DNA of 13,892 nucleotides from a virus. Its lineage: Duplodnaviria > Heunggongvirae > Uroviricota > Caudoviricetes. The notes below the pieces were generated by a model, which did not search any database, was not told the DNA's origin, and saw only the letters and a list, made by a program, of their open reading frames with translations. This document shows, piece after piece, positions 2,350-13,770 of the stretch; the first letter of the stretch is position 1, and each line of letters begins with the position of its first letter. The DNA lies in the IMG/VR virus record IMGVR_UViG_2802429244_000001, positions 1 to 13,892 of that record; one strand, 5' to 3'. The position numbers and the translations under genes are program-made.

Positions 2350-2847
2350 ATGGATCGTGAACTGAAGAATCTTGCACTCAACATCAGTCAGGTAGCTGCT
2401 CTGTCTGGGTTACACCGACAAACGGTGTCTGAAAGGTTAAAAAAAATTAAAACCACGGGTGGGCACGACAAACTTAAGTTGTACAAACTCACTGATATTC
2501 TGGCTGAGTTATTGAAGTTGCCACCGCCTGTCGCTGAAGGGGAAATGGATCCCCATGACCGAAAAGCCTGGTATCAGTCAGAACGGGAACGTCTGAAATT
2601 CGAACAGGAGGTCGGAGAACTGATCCCTGCGTCTGATGTCGCCCGTGAATTTGCTGAAATGGCAAAGGCTATGGTGCAGGTTCTGGAAACCCTCCCCGAT
2701 ATTCTTGAACGCGATTGCGCTCTTGAGCCTTCGGCTGTCATGCGGGTGCAAAGCATTATTGATGATCTGCGTGACGAAATTGCGCGGCGGGTGGCAGATG
2801 ACAGCAAACAGGAAGATACAGAGGAGGAAAATCAGGAGGACGAATAA
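2350..2847 (+). CDS. Terminase small subunit (Nu1-like, N-terminal helix-turn-helix)
   Basis: N-terminal HTH-like segment LNISQVAALSGLHRQTVSERLKK, acidic C-terminal tail, stop TAA 2845-2847 overlapping ATG 2847 of the large terminase (ATAATG). Confidence 0.7.
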   Translation: MDRELKNLALNISQVAALSGLHRQTVSERLKKIKTTGGHDKLKLYKLTDILAELLKLPPPVAEGEMDPHDRKAWYQSERERLKFEQEVGELIPASDVAREFAEMAKAMVQVLETLPDILERDCALEPSAVMRVQSIIDDLRDEIARRVADDSKQEDTEEENQEDE

Positions 2848-4964
2848 TGCCTGTGCAGGCGACCGCCAGATCGTTGAAACTGGATACGGGCCAGTTAATT
2901 AAAGCGCCGCGCAGAATGCCTGTTGCCGAAGCGGTACAAAAATTTATGCGAGTCCCTACATCTGGTGGCAACTCTGTTCCGTGGGATCCGATGGTTGCGC
3001 CGTATGTGATTGAACCCATGAACTGCCTGTCGTCCCGTGAGTTTGATGCGGTTGTTTTTGTTGGCCCTGCCCGTACGGGCAAGACTAACGGCCTGATTGA
3101 TGGCTGGGTGGTTTATAACATTGTCTGCGATCCGTCGGACTTTTTGCTGGTGCAGATGACGCAGGATAAGGCGCAGGAGCACTCCAAAAAGCGCCTGGCA
3201 AGAACATTTCGTTGCAGCCCGGAGGTCAGAAAACGCCTCAGCCCACGCCGTAACGATAACAACGTTCATGACAAATATTTTCTGTCAGGCAGCTTCCTGA
3301 AAATCGGCTGGCCTTCCATCAATGTCATGTCATCCTCTGATTTTAAATGTGTTGCGCTGACTGATTACGACCGATTTCCTGAAGATATCGATGGCGAAGG
3401 TGATGGTTTCTCCCTGGCTTCAAAACGTACCACCACATTTATGTCAGCTGGTATGACGCTGGTGGAGAGTTCCCCTGGACGTGAGATCACAAACAGCAAA
3501 TGGCGCAGAACGTCACCGCATGAAGCCCCGCCCACCACGGGGATCCTTTCTCTGTATAACCGTGGCGATCGTCGTCGCTGGTACTGGCCCTGTCCGGATT
3601 GTGGTGATTATTTTCAGCCATCAATGGAGGCTATGACGGGATATCGTGACAATCCTGATCCTGTAAAAGCCAGTGAAGCGGCTCATATATTGTGTCCGCA
3701 TTGTGGCAGTCAAATCACTGCAGATATGAAACGTGAACTGAATGGTCGCGGCGTCTGGTTGCGTGAAGGTGAGCAGATTGACAGAGAAGGGAATGTAACC
3801 GGAACGCCACGTCATTCAAGGATAGCCAGCTTCTGGATGGAAGGGCCGGCTGCAGCCTATCAGACCTGGGCGCAACTGGTTTACAAACTACTGACTGCTG
3901 AGCAGGAATATGAAGCCACAGGCAGTGAGGAAACGCTGAAGGCGGTGATTAACACCGACTGGGGATTACCTTATTTACCTCGTTCCGCAATGGAGTTGCG
4001 CAGTGCAGATGTTCTGATGCAGCGGGCTGAGGATTACGGTAAGCGCCTGGTACCGCCGAAAGTGCGTTTTCTTATTGCGGCGGTGGACGTGCAGGGCGGG
4101 AAGAACCGACGGTTTGTGGTGCAGATTATTGGTTATGGCGAGGACGGTGAACGCTGGCTGGTGGACCGTTATAACATCCGACAGTCATTGCGCGGCGATG
4201 AAAATGGCGAAGCATTACCTGTGCATCCCGGGGCTTATCCTGAAGACTGGCAGTTGCTGGTCACCGATGTACTGGAGAAAACGTATCCGCTCCAGTCCGA
4301 TCCGGCCCGCAGAATGCCTGTACTGGCAATGGCGGTGGACAGTGGTGGTGAAGACGGGGTGACGGATAACGCCTATAAATTCTGGCGAAAATGTCGTCAG
4401 GATGGACTGGGGCGACGGGTTTTTCTGGTAAAGGGAGACAGCACGAAACGCCAGAAAATTATTACCATCACACACCCGGATAATACCGGGCGAAGCGATC
4501 GCCGTGCGGATGCTCAGGGGAAGGTGCCGGTATATCTCCTGCAGACAGACCTGCTGAAAGATCAACTAAGCAATAACCTGCAACGTGAAATGCCCGGACC
4601 GGGCTACATTCATTTTCCTGACTGGCTCGGGGAGTGGTTTTATGAAGAGTTGACCTATGAGGAACGTGGTGCTGACGGGAAATGGCGCAAGCCGGGAAAA
4701 GGGAATAACGAAGCGTTTGACCTTTTTTGCTATGCCCATGCCGTCGCCATTCTGCGTGGCTATGAAAAAATCCGTGACTGGAGCAACCCTCCCCAGTGGG
4801 CAAGAGGGCAGGGTGCTGACGCGGGGGCTTCGGCAGACAGACGTTCTTCCGACACAGTGGGCAAGAAAAACGTTGCCGGAAGAGATGAGCGGCAAAAAGC
4901 AGCGTCGCCGGAAGCGTTATCCGGAAACTGGTTATCACTACCCCGAAACGGAGGATGGTTGTGA
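2847..4964 (+). CDS. Terminase large subunit, lambda gpA family
   Basis: 705 aa; Walker A-like VGPARTGKT near the N-terminus; Cys-pair segment WPCPDCGDYF...ILCPHCGSQI comparable to the CPHCG region of lambda gpA; synteny small terminase - large terminase - W - portal. Confidence 0.9.
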   Translation: MPVQATARSLKLDTGQLIKAPRRMPVAEAVQKFMRVPTSGGNSVPWDPMVAPYVIEPMNCLSSREFDAVVFVGPARTGKTNGLIDGWVVYNIVCDPSDFLLVQMTQDKAQEHSKKRLARTFRCSPEVRKRLSPRRNDNNVHDKYFLSGSFLKIGWPSINVMSSSDFKCVALTDYDRFPEDIDGEGDGFSLASKRTTTFMSAGMTLVESSPGREITNSKWRRTSPHEAPPTTGILSLYNRGDRRRWYWPCPDCGDYFQPSMEAMTGYRDNPDPVKASEAAHILCPHCGSQITADMKRELNGRGVWLREGEQIDREGNVTGTPRHSRIASFWMEGPAAAYQTWAQLVYKLLTAEQEYEATGSEETLKAVINTDWGLPYLPRSAMELRSADVLMQRAEDYGKRLVPPKVRFLIAAVDVQGGKNRRFVVQIIGYGEDGERWLVDRYNIRQSLRGDENGEALPVHPGAYPEDWQLLVTDVLEKTYPLQSDPARRMPVLAMAVDSGGEDGVTDNAYKFWRKCRQDGLGRRVFLVKGDSTKRQKIITITHPDNTGRSDRRADAQGKVPVYLLQTDLLKDQLSNNLQREMPGPGYIHFPDWLGEWFYEELTYEERGADGKWRKPGKGNNEAFDLFCYAHAVAILRGYEKIRDWSNPPQWARGQGADAGASADRRSSDTVGKKNVAGRDERQKAASPEALSGNWLSLPRNGGWL

Positions 4965-5187: not shown

Positions 5188-6699
5188 ATGGGTTTTTTTG
5201 ATAAAGCACTTGGTGCAATTGCGCCAGGGTGGGCAGTTTCGCGCGCCAGAAACAAAATGCTGCTGAGAGCTTATGAGGCGGCGCAGCCTTCACGCCTGAA
5301 TAAGGCGCGGCGCGAGAGCCGTTCTGCCGATACAGCGGTTTTTTCTGCCGGTACCTCGTTAAGGGAGCAGGCCAGGGCGCTGGATGAAGATCATGATATC
5401 GTGATTGGTCTGCTGGATAAGCTGGAAGAGCGGGTTATTGGTGCGCAGGGGATCCAGGTTGAACCACAACCACTGAGAAGCGATGGCACCCTGCATGAAT
5501 TGCTGGCAGAGCAGATTTCGGCATTGTGGTCTGAATGGTCTGTTCGCCCTGAGGTCACGGGGATGTTCACCCGACCGGAGGCCGAACGGATGGCATTGCG
5601 ATCTGCTTTGCGTGATGGCGAGATGTTCGTACAACTGGTGCGTGGTCCTGTCGCCGGTCTGAATCATTCCACTGTGGTGCCATTATCACTGGAACTTCTC
5701 GAAGCAGATTTTGTTCCGGTCAGTCTGAACACGAACGCGGGTCAGCAAGTCCGTCAGGGCATTATTCTTAACAACTGGGGGCGGCCTGTAGGGTATCGGG
5801 TTTATAAATACCATCCTGCAAATATGCGCGGATTCAGCGCCGATCTCAAAACTGTTCACGCAGACAACATGCTTCATCTGGCGATGCGGAAACGGCTTCA
5901 TCAGGTGAGAGGTGTCAGCCTGTTACATGGTGTGATTCGCCGGATTGCTGATCTGAAAGATTACGAAGAATCAGAGCGTGTGGCTGCCCGTATTGCTGCC
6001 GCGCTGGGTTTCTATATTAAGCGTGGTGATGCCGCCAGCTTTCCGACGGATAACGACTGGACACCCACAGAACAAAAACCCCGGTACTTTGATATTTCAC
6101 CGGGCATGATTTTTGACGAACTGGCCCCCGGTGAAGATCTGGGGATGGTGGAGTCGAATCGTCCGAATGTTCATCTTTATGAATTCCGGAACGGGCAGTT
6201 GCGTGCTGTGGCTGCCGGAACCCGTGGCAGTTATTCCAGTATTGCCCGTGACTATAACGGCTCCTACAGTTCGCAGCGTCAGGAGCTGGTGGAAGGTTAC
6301 GAAGGCTACGGGGTTTTACAGCAGTGGTTTGTCGGTCAGTACAGCCGCCCGGTGTACCGGGCATGGCTGGAGCAGGCGATACCTTTTCTTGAAATTCCTC
6401 CTGATGTGGATATGTCCACGCTTTTCAATGCCACTTATCTTGGCCCGGTGATGCCGTGGATTGATCCGGTGAAGGAGGCTGCAGCATGGCGGGCCATTCT
6501 TCGCGGTGGTGCCGGGACGGAGGCCGAGTGGATACGTGCCCGTGGGCAGTCACCGCAGGAGGTTAAACGTCAGCGACTGCGTGAAACTGAATTTAACCGG
6601 GAAAACGGGCTGGTGTTCGATTCTGACGCCGCTAACGATAAAGGAGCGATCCCTGATGCAGCAAATGATAAACCCGCGTCTTCGCGGGACGATGATTAA
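5188..6699 (+). CDS. Portal protein, lambda family
   Basis: 503 aa; N-terminus MGFFDKALGAIAPGWAVSRARNKMLLRAYEAA is typical of lambda-family portals; located between the W-like gene and the protease/capsid gene; stop TAA 6697-6699. Confidence 0.85.
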   Translation: MGFFDKALGAIAPGWAVSRARNKMLLRAYEAAQPSRLNKARRESRSADTAVFSAGTSLREQARALDEDHDIVIGLLDKLEERVIGAQGIQVEPQPLRSDGTLHELLAEQISALWSEWSVRPEVTGMFTRPEAERMALRSALRDGEMFVQLVRGPVAGLNHSTVVPLSLELLEADFVPVSLNTNAGQQVRQGIILNNWGRPVGYRVYKYHPANMRGFSADLKTVHADNMLHLAMRKRLHQVRGVSLLHGVIRRIADLKDYEESERVAARIAAALGFYIKRGDAASFPTDNDWTPTEQKPRYFDISPGMIFDELAPGEDLGMVESNRPNVHLYEFRNGQLRAVAAGTRGSYSSIARDYNGSYSSQRQELVEGYEGYGVLQQWFVGQYSRPVYRAWLEQAIPFLEIPPDVDMSTLFNATYLGPVMPWIDPVKEAAAWRAILRGGAGTEAEWIRARGQSPQEVKRQRLRETEFNRENGLVFDSDAANDKGAIPDAANDKPASSRDDD

Positions 6700-8746
6700 T
6701 CCCCGCGCCAGCCTTGCGGGGGTGGATGCCGCTAATGGTCAGTGCTGGTATGAAATCCGTGCACAGGCTGCCGGGCGGGTGGAAATTTACCTCTATGACG
6801 TGATTGGCGGATGGGGCATCACCGCGCAGCAGTTTATTGCTGACTGTAAGGATGCGGGGGTGTTTGAGGCCAGCGCTATTGATCTGCATATCCACAGCCC
6901 GGGCGGTGATGTGATGCAGGGGTTTGCCATCTTTAACACGCTGTCACGGCTGAAAGCGAAGGTGGATATCTGGGTGGATGGTGTTGCAGCCAGCATGGCC
7001 TCCATGATTGTCTGCCTGCCTGGCGCCACAGTGCATATGCCTGAAAATTCCTGGCTGATGGTGCACAAGCCGTGGGGCGGGATCGCCGGTGATTCCGATG
7101 ATATGCGTGATTATGCCGACTGGCTGGATCGCAATGAGCAGCTGATGCTGTCAGCCTACATGAATAAAACCGGACTCGGGCAGGAGGAGCTGGAAGCCAT
7201 GCTGAAAGCAGAAACCTGGATGAACGGTGCAGAAGCCGTGGAAAAAGGCTTCGCTGATACGCTTGAACCTGAATTACAGGCTGCGGCCTGTGTGAATCAA
7301 AATAAACTGAAGGATTACCATAACATGCCAAAACAGCTTAACGCGCTTTTTGCTCCGCGTGCAGAAACGACGAACGGACAGCAGCAGGAACCGAAAACAG
7401 CCCCGCAAAATGCACAACAGACAACTGCTCAGCAGGTGCCATCAACCGGAAATGTGGATATCAGCGCAATTGCTTCGCAGGTTCAGCAACAACTGATGGC
7501 AGCCAATGCGGAACGTGTGCAGGCTGTAACTGCAGTCTTTGCCTCTTTCCCGTCTTATGCCGACCTGAAAGCGGAGTGTCTGAACGACATGACCTGTACG
7601 GAAGCACAGGCCCGTGAAAAACTGTTGCAGGCGCTGGCAGCCGGAACGACACCAAGTGCAGGTCCGGGAGCCATTCATATTCATGCAGGAAACGGTAATC
7701 TGGTTGGCGATTCTATTCGTGCGGCTATCATGGCGCGCGCCGGATATGCTGAAGCAGAAAAAGACAATGCCTATAACGGCTTTACACTGCGTGAACTGGC
7801 GCGTGCCTCGCTGGTTGATCGTGGCATCGGTATTTCCGGACATTCCGCGCCCATGGCGATGGTCGGGCTGGCATTTACCCACAGCAGCAGCGATTTCGGC
7901 AATATCCTGATGGATGTGGCTCATAAAGCTGCGTTGCAGGGCTGGGATGATGCCAGCGAAAATTTTGACAAATGGACCCGCAAGGGAACGCTGACTGATT
8001 TTAAAACCGCGCATCGTGTCGGGCTGGAAACTTTCCCGACGCTACGAAAAGTATTACCGGGGGCTGAATATAAATATGTGACCCTGAAAGATCGTGGCGA
8101 ACCGATTGCACTGGCGACTTATGGTGAATTGTTCAGCATTGATCGCCAGACCATCATCAATGATGACCTGGATATGCTGACCCGTATTCCGATGGCAATG
8201 GGGGCGGCAGCGCGTACTACCGTGGGTGATCTGGTCTGGGCCGTGTTGACCAGTAATCCGAAAATGTCGGATGGCAAACCGCTGTTCCATGCAGATCATG
8301 GCAACCTTGTGACTGCCGATTTGTCTATTGAGGGGCTGGATTCCGGGCGTAAAGCCATGCTGCTCCAGAAATCGGGTGACCGTCGCCTGAACATTCGTCC
8401 TGCTTTTATGTTGACGCCTGTTGCCATTGAGTCACGTGCCAATCAGTTGATTAAGTCTGCCAGCGTGCCCGGTGCAGATGCGAACAGCGGCATTATTAAC
8501 CCGATTCAGAATTTTGCCACGGTTCTGTCAGAGGCCCGTCTTGATGACAGCAGCCCGACGGATTATTACCTGGTAGCAGCGCAGGGGCGTGACACGATTG
8601 AAGTGGCTTACCTCGACGGTATTGATACGCCGTATCTGGAGCAGCAACAGGGCTTTACGGTTGATGGTGCAGCATTCAAGGTGCGCATTGATGCCGGAGT
8701 GGCACCGCTTGACTGGCGTGGCATGGTCAAAGTGAAAAAACAATAA
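6656..8746 (+). CDS. Prohead protease (ClpP-like) - scaffold-like linker - major capsid protein, single 696-aa ORF
   Basis: AAGGAG at 6641-6646 nine nt before ATG 6656 (the ORF track start at 6506 is an upstream extension overlapping the portal). N-terminal domain has ClpP/S14-like sequence (VEIYLYDVIGGWG...HIHSPGGDV...AASMASMI); middle is Gln/Ala-rich low complexity (about nt 7370-7650); C-terminal about 370 aa is capsid-like; strong terminator immediately downstream. Confidence 0.8.
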   Translation: MQQMINPRLRGTMINPRASLAGVDAANGQCWYEIRAQAAGRVEIYLYDVIGGWGITAQQFIADCKDAGVFEASAIDLHIHSPGGDVMQGFAIFNTLSRLKAKVDIWVDGVAASMASMIVCLPGATVHMPENSWLMVHKPWGGIAGDSDDMRDYADWLDRNEQLMLSAYMNKTGLGQEELEAMLKAETWMNGAEAVEKGFADTLEPELQAAACVNQNKLKDYHNMPKQLNALFAPRAETTNGQQQEPKTAPQNAQQTTAQQVPSTGNVDISAIASQVQQQLMAANAERVQAVTAVFASFPSYADLKAECLNDMTCTEAQAREKLLQALAAGTTPSAGPGAIHIHAGNGNLVGDSIRAAIMARAGYAEAEKDNAYNGFTLRELARASLVDRGIGISGHSAPMAMVGLAFTHSSSDFGNILMDVAHKAALQGWDDASENFDKWTRKGTLTDFKTAHRVGLETFPTLRKVLPGAEYKYVTLKDRGEPIALATYGELFSIDRQTIINDDLDMLTRIPMAMGAAARTTVGDLVWAVLTSNPKMSDGKPLFHADHGNLVTADLSIEGLDSGRKAMLLQKSGDRRLNIRPAFMLTPVAIESRANQLIKSASVPGADANSGIINPIQNFATVLSEARLDDSSPTDYYLVAAQGRDTIEVAYLDGIDTPYLEQQQGFTVDGAAFKVRIDAGVAPLDWRGMVKVKKQ

Positions 8747-10225: not shown

Positions 10226-10795
10226 ATGGCTGAACCCTTATGCATGGCATCCTGGCACACTGCTGTGCTGGATGCCCTGAAAAAACTTAAATGGATCAAT
10301 GATGCGGACACCTATCCGGAACGGGTCACGCAGCTGGTCACTCCGGCGGTGTTTCTGGCGGTCGATGGCTGGGATGCGAAAAGCAATGCAGACGGGCAGA
10401 TGACGGTGGTGTTGTCTGCTGCGCTGTGGGTACTGGTTGACCGTGCCGGTGAGCCGGATAAAGAAAAAAAAGAAGAACGCAGGGCGATAAAGCCGGATAT
10501 TTTTATCCGTTCGGCGGCAGCCGCGTTGTCGCACTGGCTCGACGGGCAGACGTTTGGACTGGCAAATGTGGAGCCTGCCATTTTTATATCAGCGGACGCA
10601 GATGAAACCGATCCGCGTCTGGATGATTATCTGGTCTGGCAGATTTCATTTAACCAGACGGTGACGTTTGGTATGGATCCCTTTGCCACGGATAACCTGC
10701 CGCTACAGCGGGCCTGGCTGGGCGCGGCACCGGAGATCGGGCGACAGCATGTGGATGATTACCGGCTGATTTTTGAGGGAAAGCCACGTGAATGA
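10226..10795 (+). CDS. Hypothetical head-tail joining or tail completion protein, 189 aa
   Basis: GAGG at 10217-10220 before ATG 10226; 3' end overlaps the next gene; position-based functional guess. Confidence 0.4.
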   Translation: MAEPLCMASWHTAVLDALKKLKWINDADTYPERVTQLVTPAVFLAVDGWDAKSNADGQMTVVLSAALWVLVDRAGEPDKEKKEERRAIKPDIFIRSAAAALSHWLDGQTFGLANVEPAIFISADADETDPRLDDYLVWQISFNQTVTFGMDPFATDNLPLQRAWLGAAPEIGRQHVDDYRLIFEGKPRE

Positions 10796-11408
10796 GGTTC
10801 TGGGGGATTTACAGCGCCGCCTGGCAAATATGGTCCGGCGTGGGGTGATCCACTCGGTGCGGCTGGACGGTGGTTTTCCGGAATGCCGCGTGGATCTGGG
10901 GGATATTGTGACCACCTGGCTGCCATTGTGTCAGGGTTTTGCCGGAAAAAACCGGGCAGATTTTGAGCCGTTTGCTGTGGGGGATGCGGTTACGGTGCTG
11001 TCAGAGGCCGGGGAGCTGAATAACGGTCGTGTTTTTCCCGGCTGGAATACCGGTGCGGCACCGGCTCCGCAGGGCAGCGACAGTGAGCACATCACCCGTT
11101 ACGGAGATGGCACGGAAATTTGCTATAACCGGGAGACGCACTCACTGACCATTATTCTGGCAGAAGGGGGCACCTATGCCATTACCGGGAATGGTGTGCT
11201 GGACGGAAACGTCATGATCTCAGAAGACCTGATCGTGAACGGACGCACGATGGTTGAAGGTGAAGTGGTGGTGAAAAGTGATTTTTATGCAAAAGGCGAG
11301 GTGACGGATAAATCCGGCAGCATGAGCCGGATCCGGGAAACGTTTAATGGACACGACCATCCCGGAGACAGTGGGGGAACCACGAAAGTACCGAATCAGA
11401 AAATGTGA
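10788..11408 (+). CDS. Baseplate spike protein, P2 gpV-like (about 206 aa)
   Basis: From GTG 10788 (GAGG at 10774-10777 upstream; TTG 10773 is an alternative) the N-terminus VNEVLGDLQRRLANMVRRGVI parallels the P2 gpV N-terminus as I recall it; C-terminal NGHDHPGDSGGTT resembles the His-containing apex motif of gpV/gp45-type spikes; length matches gpV-class proteins. Confidence 0.55.
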   Translation: MNEVLGDLQRRLANMVRRGVIHSVRLDGGFPECRVDLGDIVTTWLPLCQGFAGKNRADFEPFAVGDAVTVLSEAGELNNGRVFPGWNTGAAPAPQGSDSEHITRYGDGTEICYNRETHSLTIILAEGGTYAITGNGVLDGNVMISEDLIVNGRTMVEGEVVVKSDFYAKGEVTDKSGSMSRIRETFNGHDHPGDSGGTTKVPNQKM

Positions 11409-11446
11409 CCTGCTGCGGCAGGTTTTTTTATGTCCGGAGAATGCAA

Positions 11447-12916
11447 ATGGGGCAATTACATGGTGTGGAAACCATCGAGCTGACAGCAGGCACGGTGGCG
11501 GTAACCACAATAGAGACAGCCATTATTGGGGTGGTGGGAACCGCGCCGCAGGCTGCCGGGGCTGTGGCAGCAACACTGACAGCGGGAACGCCGTTGCTGG
11601 GTAACGAGCTGACCTTTACGGCAAAAGCGGCGGGGCGGAGCGGAAATACCATTACCGTTATTGCTGAACAGGCTTTACAGGCAGCAAAAGAAAAAAGTGC
11701 GGGTGCGGTCCCCACGTCAGCAAAATGGGAAAACGGAAGCCTGTTGATTACGCTGGGTTGCAGTGAAAAGGGGGCAGGTAATGCCACCGTCAGTGATGTT
11801 GTGACGGCGGTGAATGGTGTGGCGGGGGCCGGGGTGAGTGCCACCGGCAGCGGTGACGGTATTGTGTCGTCGTTTTCCGGCACACTGAGTGGCGGTGAAG
11901 ATGAACCGTTTCCGCTGAACACGCCAGTGGCGATGGCGGGAACAACGGCGCTTTCACGTCTGGGGATCACCGGAACACTGAAGCAGGCGCTGGCGGAGAT
12001 TAACGACCAGCGTAACGCGCTGTCGGTGATCGTCCGGGTGGAAGAAAAAACAAAGCCGGAAGAGCAGCGTGCTGCCATTCTTGCGGGGATCAGCATGCTG
12101 TCATCGGCAAAATCCGTCACCACGTATCAGCCACGTATTGTGATCGCACCAGGATTCAGTGAAGACGATGCGGTGGGTAAGGCACTGGAAACTGTGGCCG
12201 GAAAACTGCGGGCAGTGGCGTACGTGGATTGTGCGGCGGGCGCGACACTGCAGGAAGTGGTGCAGCGTCGCCAGTCTTACGGTGCCCGGACTGAACTACT
12301 GCGCCCGCGTGTGCAGGTCAGTAATGCAGAGGGGCAACTGGTGTATCGCCCGTATTCGGCGTTTGCTGCCGGACTGCGTGCCCGTATTGACTATGAAAAA
12401 GGGTGGTGGTGGAGCAAATCAAACCAGGAGGTTTACAACATCCTCGGTGTTGAGCAGGTGGATGAATTTATCCTCGGTGAGCGCAACTGCGATGCCAACC
12501 TGCTTAATATGCAGAATGTTTCCACCCTGATCCGCCGCGCCGGATTTAAACACTGGGGAAACCGGCTGTGCTCGTCCCATCCTCAGTGGCATTTCGAGTC
12601 CGTCCGCCGTACTGCGGATGTGATTGAAGACAGTATCCAGGAGGCGATGCTGGCGTATGTTGACCGCCCGCTCGATCGCCAGAATGCGGACGACATTATT
12701 GGCACCATTAATGCGTATATGCGCCGTCTGGTGGCAGAAGGTGCCATCTTCGGGGGGCGGGCATGGCTGGATCCGGAACTGAATACCGCCGAAACGCTGG
12801 CAGCCGGTGAACTGTACATCAACTATGACTTCGGTCCCAAATCGCCGACTGAACTTATCAGCATGCGGGTGAGTGTCAACAACGAATACGGCATTAAGGA
12901 GATGACGGCAACATGA
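11447..12916 (+). CDS. Contractile tail sheath protein (P2 FI / Mu L family) with an extra N-proximal domain
   Basis: GGAGA at 11434-11438 eight nt before ATG 11447; matches to recalled P2 FI: N-terminal HGVETIEL, EPFPLNTPV, TLIRRAGFKHWGNRLCS, ELYINYDFGPKSP; followed by the tube gene with ATGA overlap. Confidence 0.85.
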   Translation: MGQLHGVETIELTAGTVAVTTIETAIIGVVGTAPQAAGAVAATLTAGTPLLGNELTFTAKAAGRSGNTITVIAEQALQAAKEKSAGAVPTSAKWENGSLLITLGCSEKGAGNATVSDVVTAVNGVAGAGVSATGSGDGIVSSFSGTLSGGEDEPFPLNTPVAMAGTTALSRLGITGTLKQALAEINDQRNALSVIVRVEEKTKPEEQRAAILAGISMLSSAKSVTTYQPRIVIAPGFSEDDAVGKALETVAGKLRAVAYVDCAAGATLQEVVQRRQSYGARTELLRPRVQVSNAEGQLVYRPYSAFAAGLRARIDYEKGWWWSKSNQEVYNILGVEQVDEFILGERNCDANLLNMQNVSTLIRRAGFKHWGNRLCSSHPQWHFESVRRTADVIEDSIQEAMLAYVDRPLDRQNADDIIGTINAYMRRLVAEGAIFGGRAWLDPELNTAETLAAGELYINYDFGPKSPTELISMRVSVNNEYGIKEMTAT

Positions 12917-13419
12917 GCAGTAAAAACACATTACGGGCCTGGACTTTTTTCCGCCAGGGGGTCCGTATTCAGGGAGCGCATGAGTTCACGCCACCCACGC
13001 TGTCCATAACCACCACTGATTTACGCACCGGGGCACAGGATGCCCCCACGCCGGTTGACGACGGCATGGAGGCGCTGACCTGCCAGATTAAATTCTATGG
13101 TCTGGATACAGACATGCTGTCCAGTCTCGGATTTGTCAGTGGCAACCGCTCCCGCTTCACGGCCTATCAGGGCTATCTGGCAAACGGCACCGCGCTGGGG
13201 ACCACCGAAGAAATCGAAGGTTTTGTGAAAACGGTGACGCCGGATGCGCGCGGAAACAGCGGGCTGTCAGAAAATGCGGTGACAGTGGAAATCGCGGTGA
13301 ATTATTACCGTCAGACGCTGGAGGGGATCGAACTCATTATGATTGATACCGAGCGTTTTGAGCGTCGGATCAACGGCGTGAATGTTCTCGCCGGCCTGTC
13401 GGCAAAAGTGCGTCTCTGA
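12913..13419 (+). CDS. Tail tube protein (P2 FII-like)
   Basis: 168 aa directly downstream of the sheath with 4-nt overlap; C-terminal GIELIMIDTERFERRINGVNVLAG parallels the recalled C-terminal region of P2 FII. Confidence 0.75.
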   Translation: MSSKNTLRAWTFFRQGVRIQGAHEFTPPTLSITTTDLRTGAQDAPTPVDDGMEALTCQIKFYGLDTDMLSSLGFVSGNRSRFTAYQGYLANGTALGTTEEIEGFVKTVTPDARGNSGLSENAVTVEIAVNYYRQTLEGIELIMIDTERFERRINGVNVLAGLSAKVRL

Positions 13420-13436
13420 TCACTGATTAACGCATA

Positions 13437-13458
13437 ACGGCCTGCGGGCCGTTTTTTT
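13437..13458 (+). terminator. Rho-independent terminator or attenuator between tube and tail chaperone genes
   Basis: Stem CGGCC(13438-13442)/GGCCG(13447-13451) with 4-nt loop, followed by seven T at 13452-13458; AGGAG RBS of the next gene starts right after. Confidence 0.55.
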
Positions 13459-13470
13459 AAGGAGCAGATT

Positions 13471-13770
13471 ATGAATATTCCGGGCGAAACCCGCACCATC
13501 ACACTGTACACGCCGGTCACTCTGGGAGGCGGGGCTGTGCTGGAACGCATCACCATGCGCGAACCGCTGGTGCGCGATCGCATTGCCTTCACCAAAGACC
13601 GGGGAACAGAAGAGGAAAAAGAGGCGCGTATGATTGCGCAGCTTTGTAATCTGAGTGAGCAGGATATCTGGCTGCTGACCGCAGCGGATTATGCCCAGCT
13701 GACGGATGCCTTTAATGTTTTTATGCTGCCACCCGGGAAGCGACCGAAACCGAAATCTTCAGAGGGTTAA
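13471..13770 (+). CDS. Tail assembly chaperone (P2 gpE-like)
   Basis: AGGAG at 13459-13463 then ATG 13471; 99 aa acidic protein directly after sheath and tube genes, the canonical position of the E/E' (or G/GT) chaperone. Confidence 0.6.
   Translation: MNIPGETRTITLYTPVTLGGGAVLERITMREPLVRDRIAFTKDRGTEEEKEARMIAQLCNLSEQDIWLLTAADYAQLTDAFNVFMLPPGKRPKPKSSEG

Follow-up and report, generated by a model that had tools for sequence, protein, structure and literature searches.

In contractile tail sheaths, domain II is located at the surface, with extra domains nested inside it in 'Russian-doll' fashion (PMC6088184). According to Evseev et al. (PMC9230969), such additional domains are positioned at a distance from the tube and are regarded as probably dispensable for contraction, and sheaths with one extra domain are there termed 'type 2' (Evseev, Shneider and Miroshnikov 2022). 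In T4 gp18, the outer domains are inserted after residue 87, and its domain I protrudes and contacts the baseplate and the retracted long fibres (PMC3004832). The distal domain III of phiCD508 is flexible, being ordered only at the baseplate contact (PMC11948020). The sheath described here has a core of the P2 FI type and carries an additional domain of about 115 residues in a loop other than those used by T4 gp18 and Mu L.

The window, meaning the whole stretch of 13,892 nucleotides that was analysed, is the late-gene region of an enterobacterial prophage. Its lambda-type head module comprises the terminase gpA (2847-4964), the portal (5188-6699) and a fusion of a Clp-type protease with the capsid protein (6506-8746). 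The latter is a single ORF of 746 aa with a Clp-type protease domain (residues 123-252) and a Phage_capsid_4 major capsid domain (435-743), and its counterpart in phage Chris1 is annotated only as 'Clp protease-like'. The P2-type contractile tail module contains a gpV-like spike (10773-11408), the tail sheath gene (11447-12916, plus strand, 489 aa and stop), the tube gene directly downstream (12913-13419, PF04985) and then a tail assembly chaperone (13471-13770, PF10109). Terminator-like hairpins with T-runs flank the pair of sheath and tube genes, the first immediately behind the gpV stop and 20 nt 5' of the sheath ribosome-binding site (11407-11424), the second behind the tube stop (13436-13453); four terminator-like sites in the region, compared with 3.4 expected from shuffling, are not above expectation.

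The product of 11447-12916 is a contractile tail sheath of the P2 FI / R-pyocin type. The gene starts at ATG 11447, with a GGAGA ribosome-binding site at 11436-11440, 6 nt upstream, and RefSeq gives the same start for E. coli prophage genes that are 97% identical. Two Pfam families match above their gathering scores, PF04984 Phage_sheath_1 at residues 218-367 (57.8 bits, cut-off 31.4) and PF17482 Phage_sheath_1C at residues 378-478 (64.8 bits, cut-off 26.9), and the protein is assigned to phrog_23 with E=9e-109. The Foldseek neighbours of the AF2 whole-protein model are pyocin, CIS and phage sheaths, led by the R2 pyocin sheath (E=4e-22) and followed by 45 sheath chains at E<=1e-3. At the DNA level, the gene is 96-97% identical to genes in ten complete E. 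coli chromosomes, annotated merely as 'phage tail sheath C-terminal domain-containing protein'. The nearest isolated phage is Citrobacter phage Chris1, with a sheath protein 76% identical and the same gene order; a megablast search of the phage collection with the sheath gene returned no match. Decayed copies of the same prophage are found in E. coli P13-6 (L001 3133-3492), as a sheath pseudogene with most of the gene deleted, and in E. coli STEC308 (L003 2994-4406). In STEC306-308, which have lost the head and baseplate genes, the sheath 5' end adjoins an ATP-binding gene that is truncated.

The sheath gene falls into three parts, all read on the plus strand. The first (11447-11551), conserved with P2 FI, encodes an N-terminal arm (residues 1-25) and the first strand of sheath domain II ('AIIGVVGTAP', residues 25-34), with 77-83% identity to the query over 112 homologues. 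The arm sequence 'HGVETIEL' is kept in P2 and pyocin sheaths; the model places strands at residues 7-13, 16-22 and 27-32 in this region, and residues 1-21 have pLDDT values under 50, which is to be expected of an arm ordered in the polymer only. The third part (11897-12913) has 80-95% identity across homologues and encodes the rest of the core with its Pfam matches, that is, the remainder of domain II and the C-terminal domain I, laid out as a Gp18_domIII_N-like segment from 'EDEPFPLNTPV', then Phage_sheath_1 and then domain I. Between these two lies the accessory domain at 11552-11896, where the earlier note had placed an insertion of about 115 residues; the segment is in the sheath frame and corresponds to residues 36-150 counted from ATG 11447 (AAGAVAATLT...GTLSGG), with a fold unit of approximately residues 33-152 (11543-11902).

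Comparison with the minimal sheaths delimits this segment sharply. The R2 pyocin sheath (3j9q) aligns with the query at E=2e-51, covering only residues 151-481 or thereabouts, to chain residues 37-378, and the tblastn alignment with P2 FI starts at residue 146. In a MAFFT alignment, P2 FI and ECO1230-10 show a single clean gap, about 113 columns long, that separates 'GTAPxA' from 'D/E-x-FPLNTP', and keep both flanks, an N-terminal 'HGV..E......T....IG.VGTAP.A' followed by 'FPLN.P'. The P2 FI and pyocin alignments thus skip residues 36-150, which agrees with the claim of an insertion relative to P2 FI outside the conserved core; at this site the pyocin sheath has only the short loop 'TPGAQASAKPN', and P2 has the loop SDADAE. 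The proposed Ala/Gly/Thr-rich bias is also borne out, since A+G+T+S make up 57% of the insert versus 31% of the rest, with an entropy of 3.52 versus 4.08 bits. The lack of this segment in the P2 FI and pyocin sheaths, the conserved flanks and the compositional bias therefore confirm the insert observation. Base composition gives no clear signal of recent foreign origin (GC 58.8% in the insert versus 56.6% in the rest of the gene).

Within the insert, conservation is concentrated in a 'GxxGN' turn, G-R-S-G-N (residues 63-67, 11633-11647, plus strand), which follows the strand LTFTAK; no other motif of the domain family is conserved as strongly. In alignment A1, G63 and N67 do not vary and conservation of G66 is at least 90%; the same threshold is reached by the G, G and N positions in A4, the broad alignment of the family, and the sequence 'TARNAGTIGNHLSV' of 8fop gp20 aligns to this motif. 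As the sole near-universal motif of the insert family, GxxGN looks structural in role, and no ligand-binding motif was found in the insert. Conservation is lowest in a hypervariable loop at residues 71-90 (VIAEQALQAAKEKSAGAVPT; 11657-11716, plus strand), which has 27-28% identity to the query and is an indel hotspot, with about 50 extra residues in homologue P0116. The sheath contains cysteines at positions 105 (11759-11761), 262 (12230-12232), 348 (12488-12490) and 375 (12569-12571), and the sheath-family cysteines are unusually conserved: C375 never varies, 112 of 113 sequences have C348, and 91 of 113 have the single cysteine of the insert ('LGC').

Pfam comparisons place the insertion in an unusual loop. 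Gp18_domIII_N occupies residues 26-86 of P2 FI, and in Mu L it matches weakly at 50-87 and is followed by Phage_sheath_domII (PF17481) at 99-203. In homologues P0049 and P0114, profile positions 9-58 of Gp18_domIII_N match residues 146-198, after the insert, and the domain therefore splits that segment after its first strand. The outer domains of Mu L (99-203), 8fop gp20 (about 98-228) and DSY3957 (from about 93) lie farther along the chain, and the insertion in the window is about 60 residues earlier than in these three sheaths and in T4 gp18. The comparison with Mu L raised in the earlier note accordingly has to be corrected: Mu L carries an outer domain of its own, which occupies a different site. 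A further site is used by the FI-like sheaths of ECO1230-10, FoX5 and ep3 type, which have an unrelated Gly-rich insertion of about 85 residues in another surface loop, after 'PGFTH'. P2-FI-type cores hence take outer domains in at least three surface loops, namely that of the window, the Mu/T4 site and the ECO1230-10 site, and three usable insertion loops would be useful for engineering tailocins or phage tails to display cargo. The sheaths of ECO1230-10 (L006 1402-2823) and FoX5 (L011 720-2156) are 474-479 aa long and lack the domain studied here; their Gly-rich insertion looks internally repeated (…GGSGYTETPTISLTGGGG… / …NSGMGYTTAPTVAITGGNG…).

Structure prediction indicates that the insert folds as an independent domain, in line with what the earlier note had envisaged. 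The AF2 model of the whole sheath, built with 59 homologues, has pLDDT values of 92-94 over most of residues 31-160, the loop at 71-90 being the lowest part of the insert domain (70-79), and residues 33-152 modelled alone with 40 homologues reach a pLDDT of 90.8 and a pTM of 0.83, with seven strands and two helices. The description 'low-complexity' is thus apt for the biased composition and reduced entropy and fails in the sense of unstructured, as pLDDT exceeds 90. The closest structural relatives of the insert appear to be the distal, solvent-exposed domains of other sheaths, a likeness that would favour the suggested surface decoration. gp18PR and the phiKZ gp29PR fragment contain nothing but outer domains. 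Since the two-domain pyocin sheath has nothing that corresponds to the segment, the matches to full-length chains should lie in the accessory domain too.

No significant family emerged when the insert alone was scanned against Pfam, PHROGs and NCBIfam, and a PDB sequence search found nothing at E<=10 with the close-homologue profile A3 and only weak sheath matches with the broadened profile A4. Against PF17481 Phage_sheath_domII, the query scores 11.5 bits (E=0.42), below the cut-off of 31.4. Sub-threshold, co-linear matches to this family occur in 22 of 47 diverse family members (best member E=2e-4), and no other Pfam family recurs among these 47. The family HMM gives 3 bits on Mu L domain II, and the family profile matches 8fop gp20 at 152-215 (E=0.0025) and DSY3957 at 93-139. 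The chain position expected for PF17481, after Gp18_domIII_N at about 90-100, also differs from that of the window's domain at 36-150. From these profile comparisons, we read the insert family as a putative distant relative of Phage_sheath_domII and not as a member. Neither an Ig-type family match nor an all-beta sandwich fold was found, which separates the insert from the Ig-like, FN3 and BIG decoration domains.

Based on these observations, we consider the insert to be, with good probability, an accessory distal-type outer domain of a P2-FI-type sheath, a passive surface module outside the contraction machinery. Residues 36-150 would form an independently folding unit that corresponds to the distal 'domain III' of sheaths with three domains and interrupts the subunit's surface-facing domain II at its first loop. 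With one copy displayed per subunit, these domains would cover the tail as its outermost layer. Judging by the insertion site and homologous structures, we infer that the insert points outwards and takes no part in the contraction engine, the machinery of which would consist of the N- and C-terminal arms and domain I. Its most likely role would be in lateral or baseplate-proximal contacts, or in the docking of folded-back fibres, stabilising the extended tail; weak multivalent binding to cell-surface polymers would be the second possibility. The exposed loops of the insert would be free to diversify.

A broader hypothesis concerns the family to which the domain belongs. When the domain profile was searched against 1.84 billion representative proteins, 488 proteins, including same-site sheaths, were found at E<=1e-3. 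The matches include phage-type 'virion structural' proteins of 700-1050 aa with four to seven tandem copies, one of them encoded upstream of a tube gene in a phage-like contig, and a DUF3383-type sheath with two copies. They also include a FlgE-like hook protein (P0201, 512 aa) and a FlgL-like hook-associated protein (P0176, 463 aa) with two copies each, and a protein of 2909 aa with PATR autotransporter repeats (P0143) and nine copies. P0201, P0176 and P0143 are surface-exposed proteins unrelated to phage tails. On a phage-like metagenomic contig (L009 10001-15606), the gene for a protein of 713 aa with four tandem copies precedes, in this order, those for a histidine kinase, a response regulator and Phage_tube_2, an odd site for a two-component system. 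An hhalign comparison of the sheath alignment with one repeat protein aligned the insert only, including the closing 'GGED', at 94.6% probability and 31% identity. Reversed or locally shuffled controls gave at most 11 bits, compared with a median best-domain score of 36, so composition is not the cause of the matches, and a compositional artefact behind the repeat-protein matches was ruled out. The family consensus reads ..FTAktaGtaGNdItV..ItVtLATdasGaItSTAadVvaAIN..LVtA..GsGvV..LsGGeD, and no Pfam or NCBIfam model reaches threshold on the domain family. It is conceivable, and we put it forward only tentatively, that the insert belongs to a mobile 'polymer-surface display' domain family not described before, only remotely related to PF17481 and sharing a surface property such as binding or lateral bracing. 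Such a family would have been exchanged among tail sheaths, multi-copy virion proteins, flagellar hook and hook-junction proteins and autotransporter-like adhesins, and would have entered the sheath at a loop different from the Mu/T4 site. The tandem copies in virion and flagellar axial proteins suggest a shared surface module worth defining as a family.

The distribution of the domain among sheaths bears on whether it was gained in this lineage or lost elsewhere. The rarity implied by the earlier note does not hold, as the same architecture occurs in more than 100 enterobacterial prophage sheaths, and the domain is present in every close homologue of full length (484-542 aa, 55-97% identity). 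Shorter matches (P0080, P0092, P0099 and others) were considered as insert-less relatives and proved to be truncated ORFs instead. In the genome scan, the sheath was found at 26 loci in 15 named Enterobacterales genera and unclassified Enterobacteriaceae, and wherever no contig end cuts the locus, both the N-terminus and the insert are covered. At least nine further 50%-identity clusters, with sheaths 31-47% identical to the query, have a domain of this family in the same loop. The architecture is shared by the phages Citrobacter Chris1, Hafnia yong2, Vibrio Valp1 and Stutzerimonas ZRG1, the latter with a domain score of 93 bits; a tblastn search of the phage collection with the insert alone recovered Chris1 only. 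E. coli phage 569R10 has a core 54% identical to the query and a diverged same-site domain scoring only 25 bits, and its classification as an insert-less sheath, suggested by a match starting at residue 147, was rejected. The domain could be ancestral to FI-type sheaths and have been lost in P2, pyocins and their relatives, and the same-site architecture is indeed old, extending to sheaths only 31-37% identical to the query and to Vibrio and Stutzerimonas phages; in the core, P2 FI shares about 37% identity with the query. Against this, of the 559 phage records that contain a sheath homologue, only 4 cover 80% or more of the query, 569R10 representing a fifth group, the close relatives of the domain in unrelated proteins fit a mobile module, and other FI-like sheaths have gained different inserts in other loops. 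We regard ancestry followed by loss as rather unlikely.

The domain evolves approximately 3-10 times faster than the core, yet under purifying selection. Identity to the query among homologues is 27-60% for the domain versus 80-95% for the core, and three pairwise comparisons gave dN/dS values of 0.14-0.31 for the domain, all below 0.32, versus 0.03-0.09 for the core. Indels within the domain fall in loops, concentrated at residues 77-87, 97, 125 and 132. The pattern of conservation, dN/dS and indels is that of a folded, exposed and weakly constrained module. A minus-strand ORF of 231 aa (11428-12123), antisense to the insert, was judged spurious, with the purifying selection acting in the sheath frame; it is rich in Ala, Ser, Thr and Pro and most likely a by-product of GC- and Ala-rich sense codons. 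The hypervariability of the exposed loops would also suit an insert that is primarily an adhesin, which would bind host carbohydrates or proteins weakly and multivalently along the tail and raise adsorption, as has been proposed for Ig-like decorations. This reading, which is one hypothesis for extra sheath domains in Evseev et al. (PMC9230969), could also draw on the relatives in tandem arrays in a PATR autotransporter-like protein, giant proteins and flagellar surface proteins; as the primary function, we think it unlikely.

Two other readings of the segment appear highly improbable. The internal duplication suggested earlier, of a unit of about 55 residues (LTFTAKAAGRSGNTITV versus LITLGCSEKGAGNATVSDV), could appeal to the fact that each stretch is a beta-strand followed by a Gly-rich turn, but hhalign of the two half-profiles aligned a single column at a probability of 0.1%, the first stretch is predicted as strand-turn-strand and the second as strand-loop-helix, no tandem DNA repeat was found in the segment, and the wider-family consensus differs between the regions ('FTAktaGtaGNdItV' versus 'ItVtLATdasGaItSTAadVvaAIN'). 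A flexible low-complexity linker or spacer without a defined fold, tolerated as harmless, would match the Ala/Gly/Thr/Ser content, the reduced entropy and the absence of a Pfam or PHROG match for the segment alone, but is refuted by the predicted fold, the motif positions kept across hundreds of proteins, the purifying selection, the specific structural neighbours and the failure of the shuffled controls.

The accessory outer domain proposed here gives a meaning to about a quarter of a widespread prophage sheath (residues 36-150) that is unannotated, likewise in Chris1, yong2, Valp1 and ZRG1, and that can now be labelled a sheath distal domain; the understanding of contraction is unchanged by this finding. 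Among known systems, the minimal sheaths P2 FI and R2 pyocin sheath PA0622 share the homologous core (34-37% identity, E=2e-51) and the gene order sheath-tube-chaperone, but are without the 115-residue domain altogether. Mu L is similar in combining a beta-rich outer domain, PF17481, with a Phage_sheath_1 and Phage_sheath_1C core in a sheath of about 495 aa. Among the three-domain sheaths with a distal 'domain III', phiCD508 gp55 (9gb1) and Desulfitobacterium prophage DSY3957 (3hxl) have cores of the Firmicutes type, in contrast to the P2 FI type of the window, and belong to different lineages; the family profile reaches only E=0.63 on DSY3957, where the matched region begins at about residue 93 and not at 36. 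T4 gp18 (gp18PR) differs in having two nested domains after residue 87 in a much larger sheath, and its baseplate contact and retracted-fibre docking would serve only as a precedent for the window's insert. The type 2 sheaths, as delineated in Evseev et al. 2022 (PMC9230969), likewise have a main domain and one compact additional domain away from the tube, at 426-713 aa, and the AF2 models show the same arrangement, a conserved main domain with one compact additional domain formed by one stretch of the chain. The additional domains in that study are mostly described as Ig-like beta-sandwiches, whereas the insert in the window is mixed alpha/beta. Given the nesting described in the literature, the type 2 class and the structural likeness, a decorated sheath is a known kind of thing and therefore ordinary; what is new, in both cases modestly, is the insertion loop and the unannotated, promiscuous domain family that occupies it.
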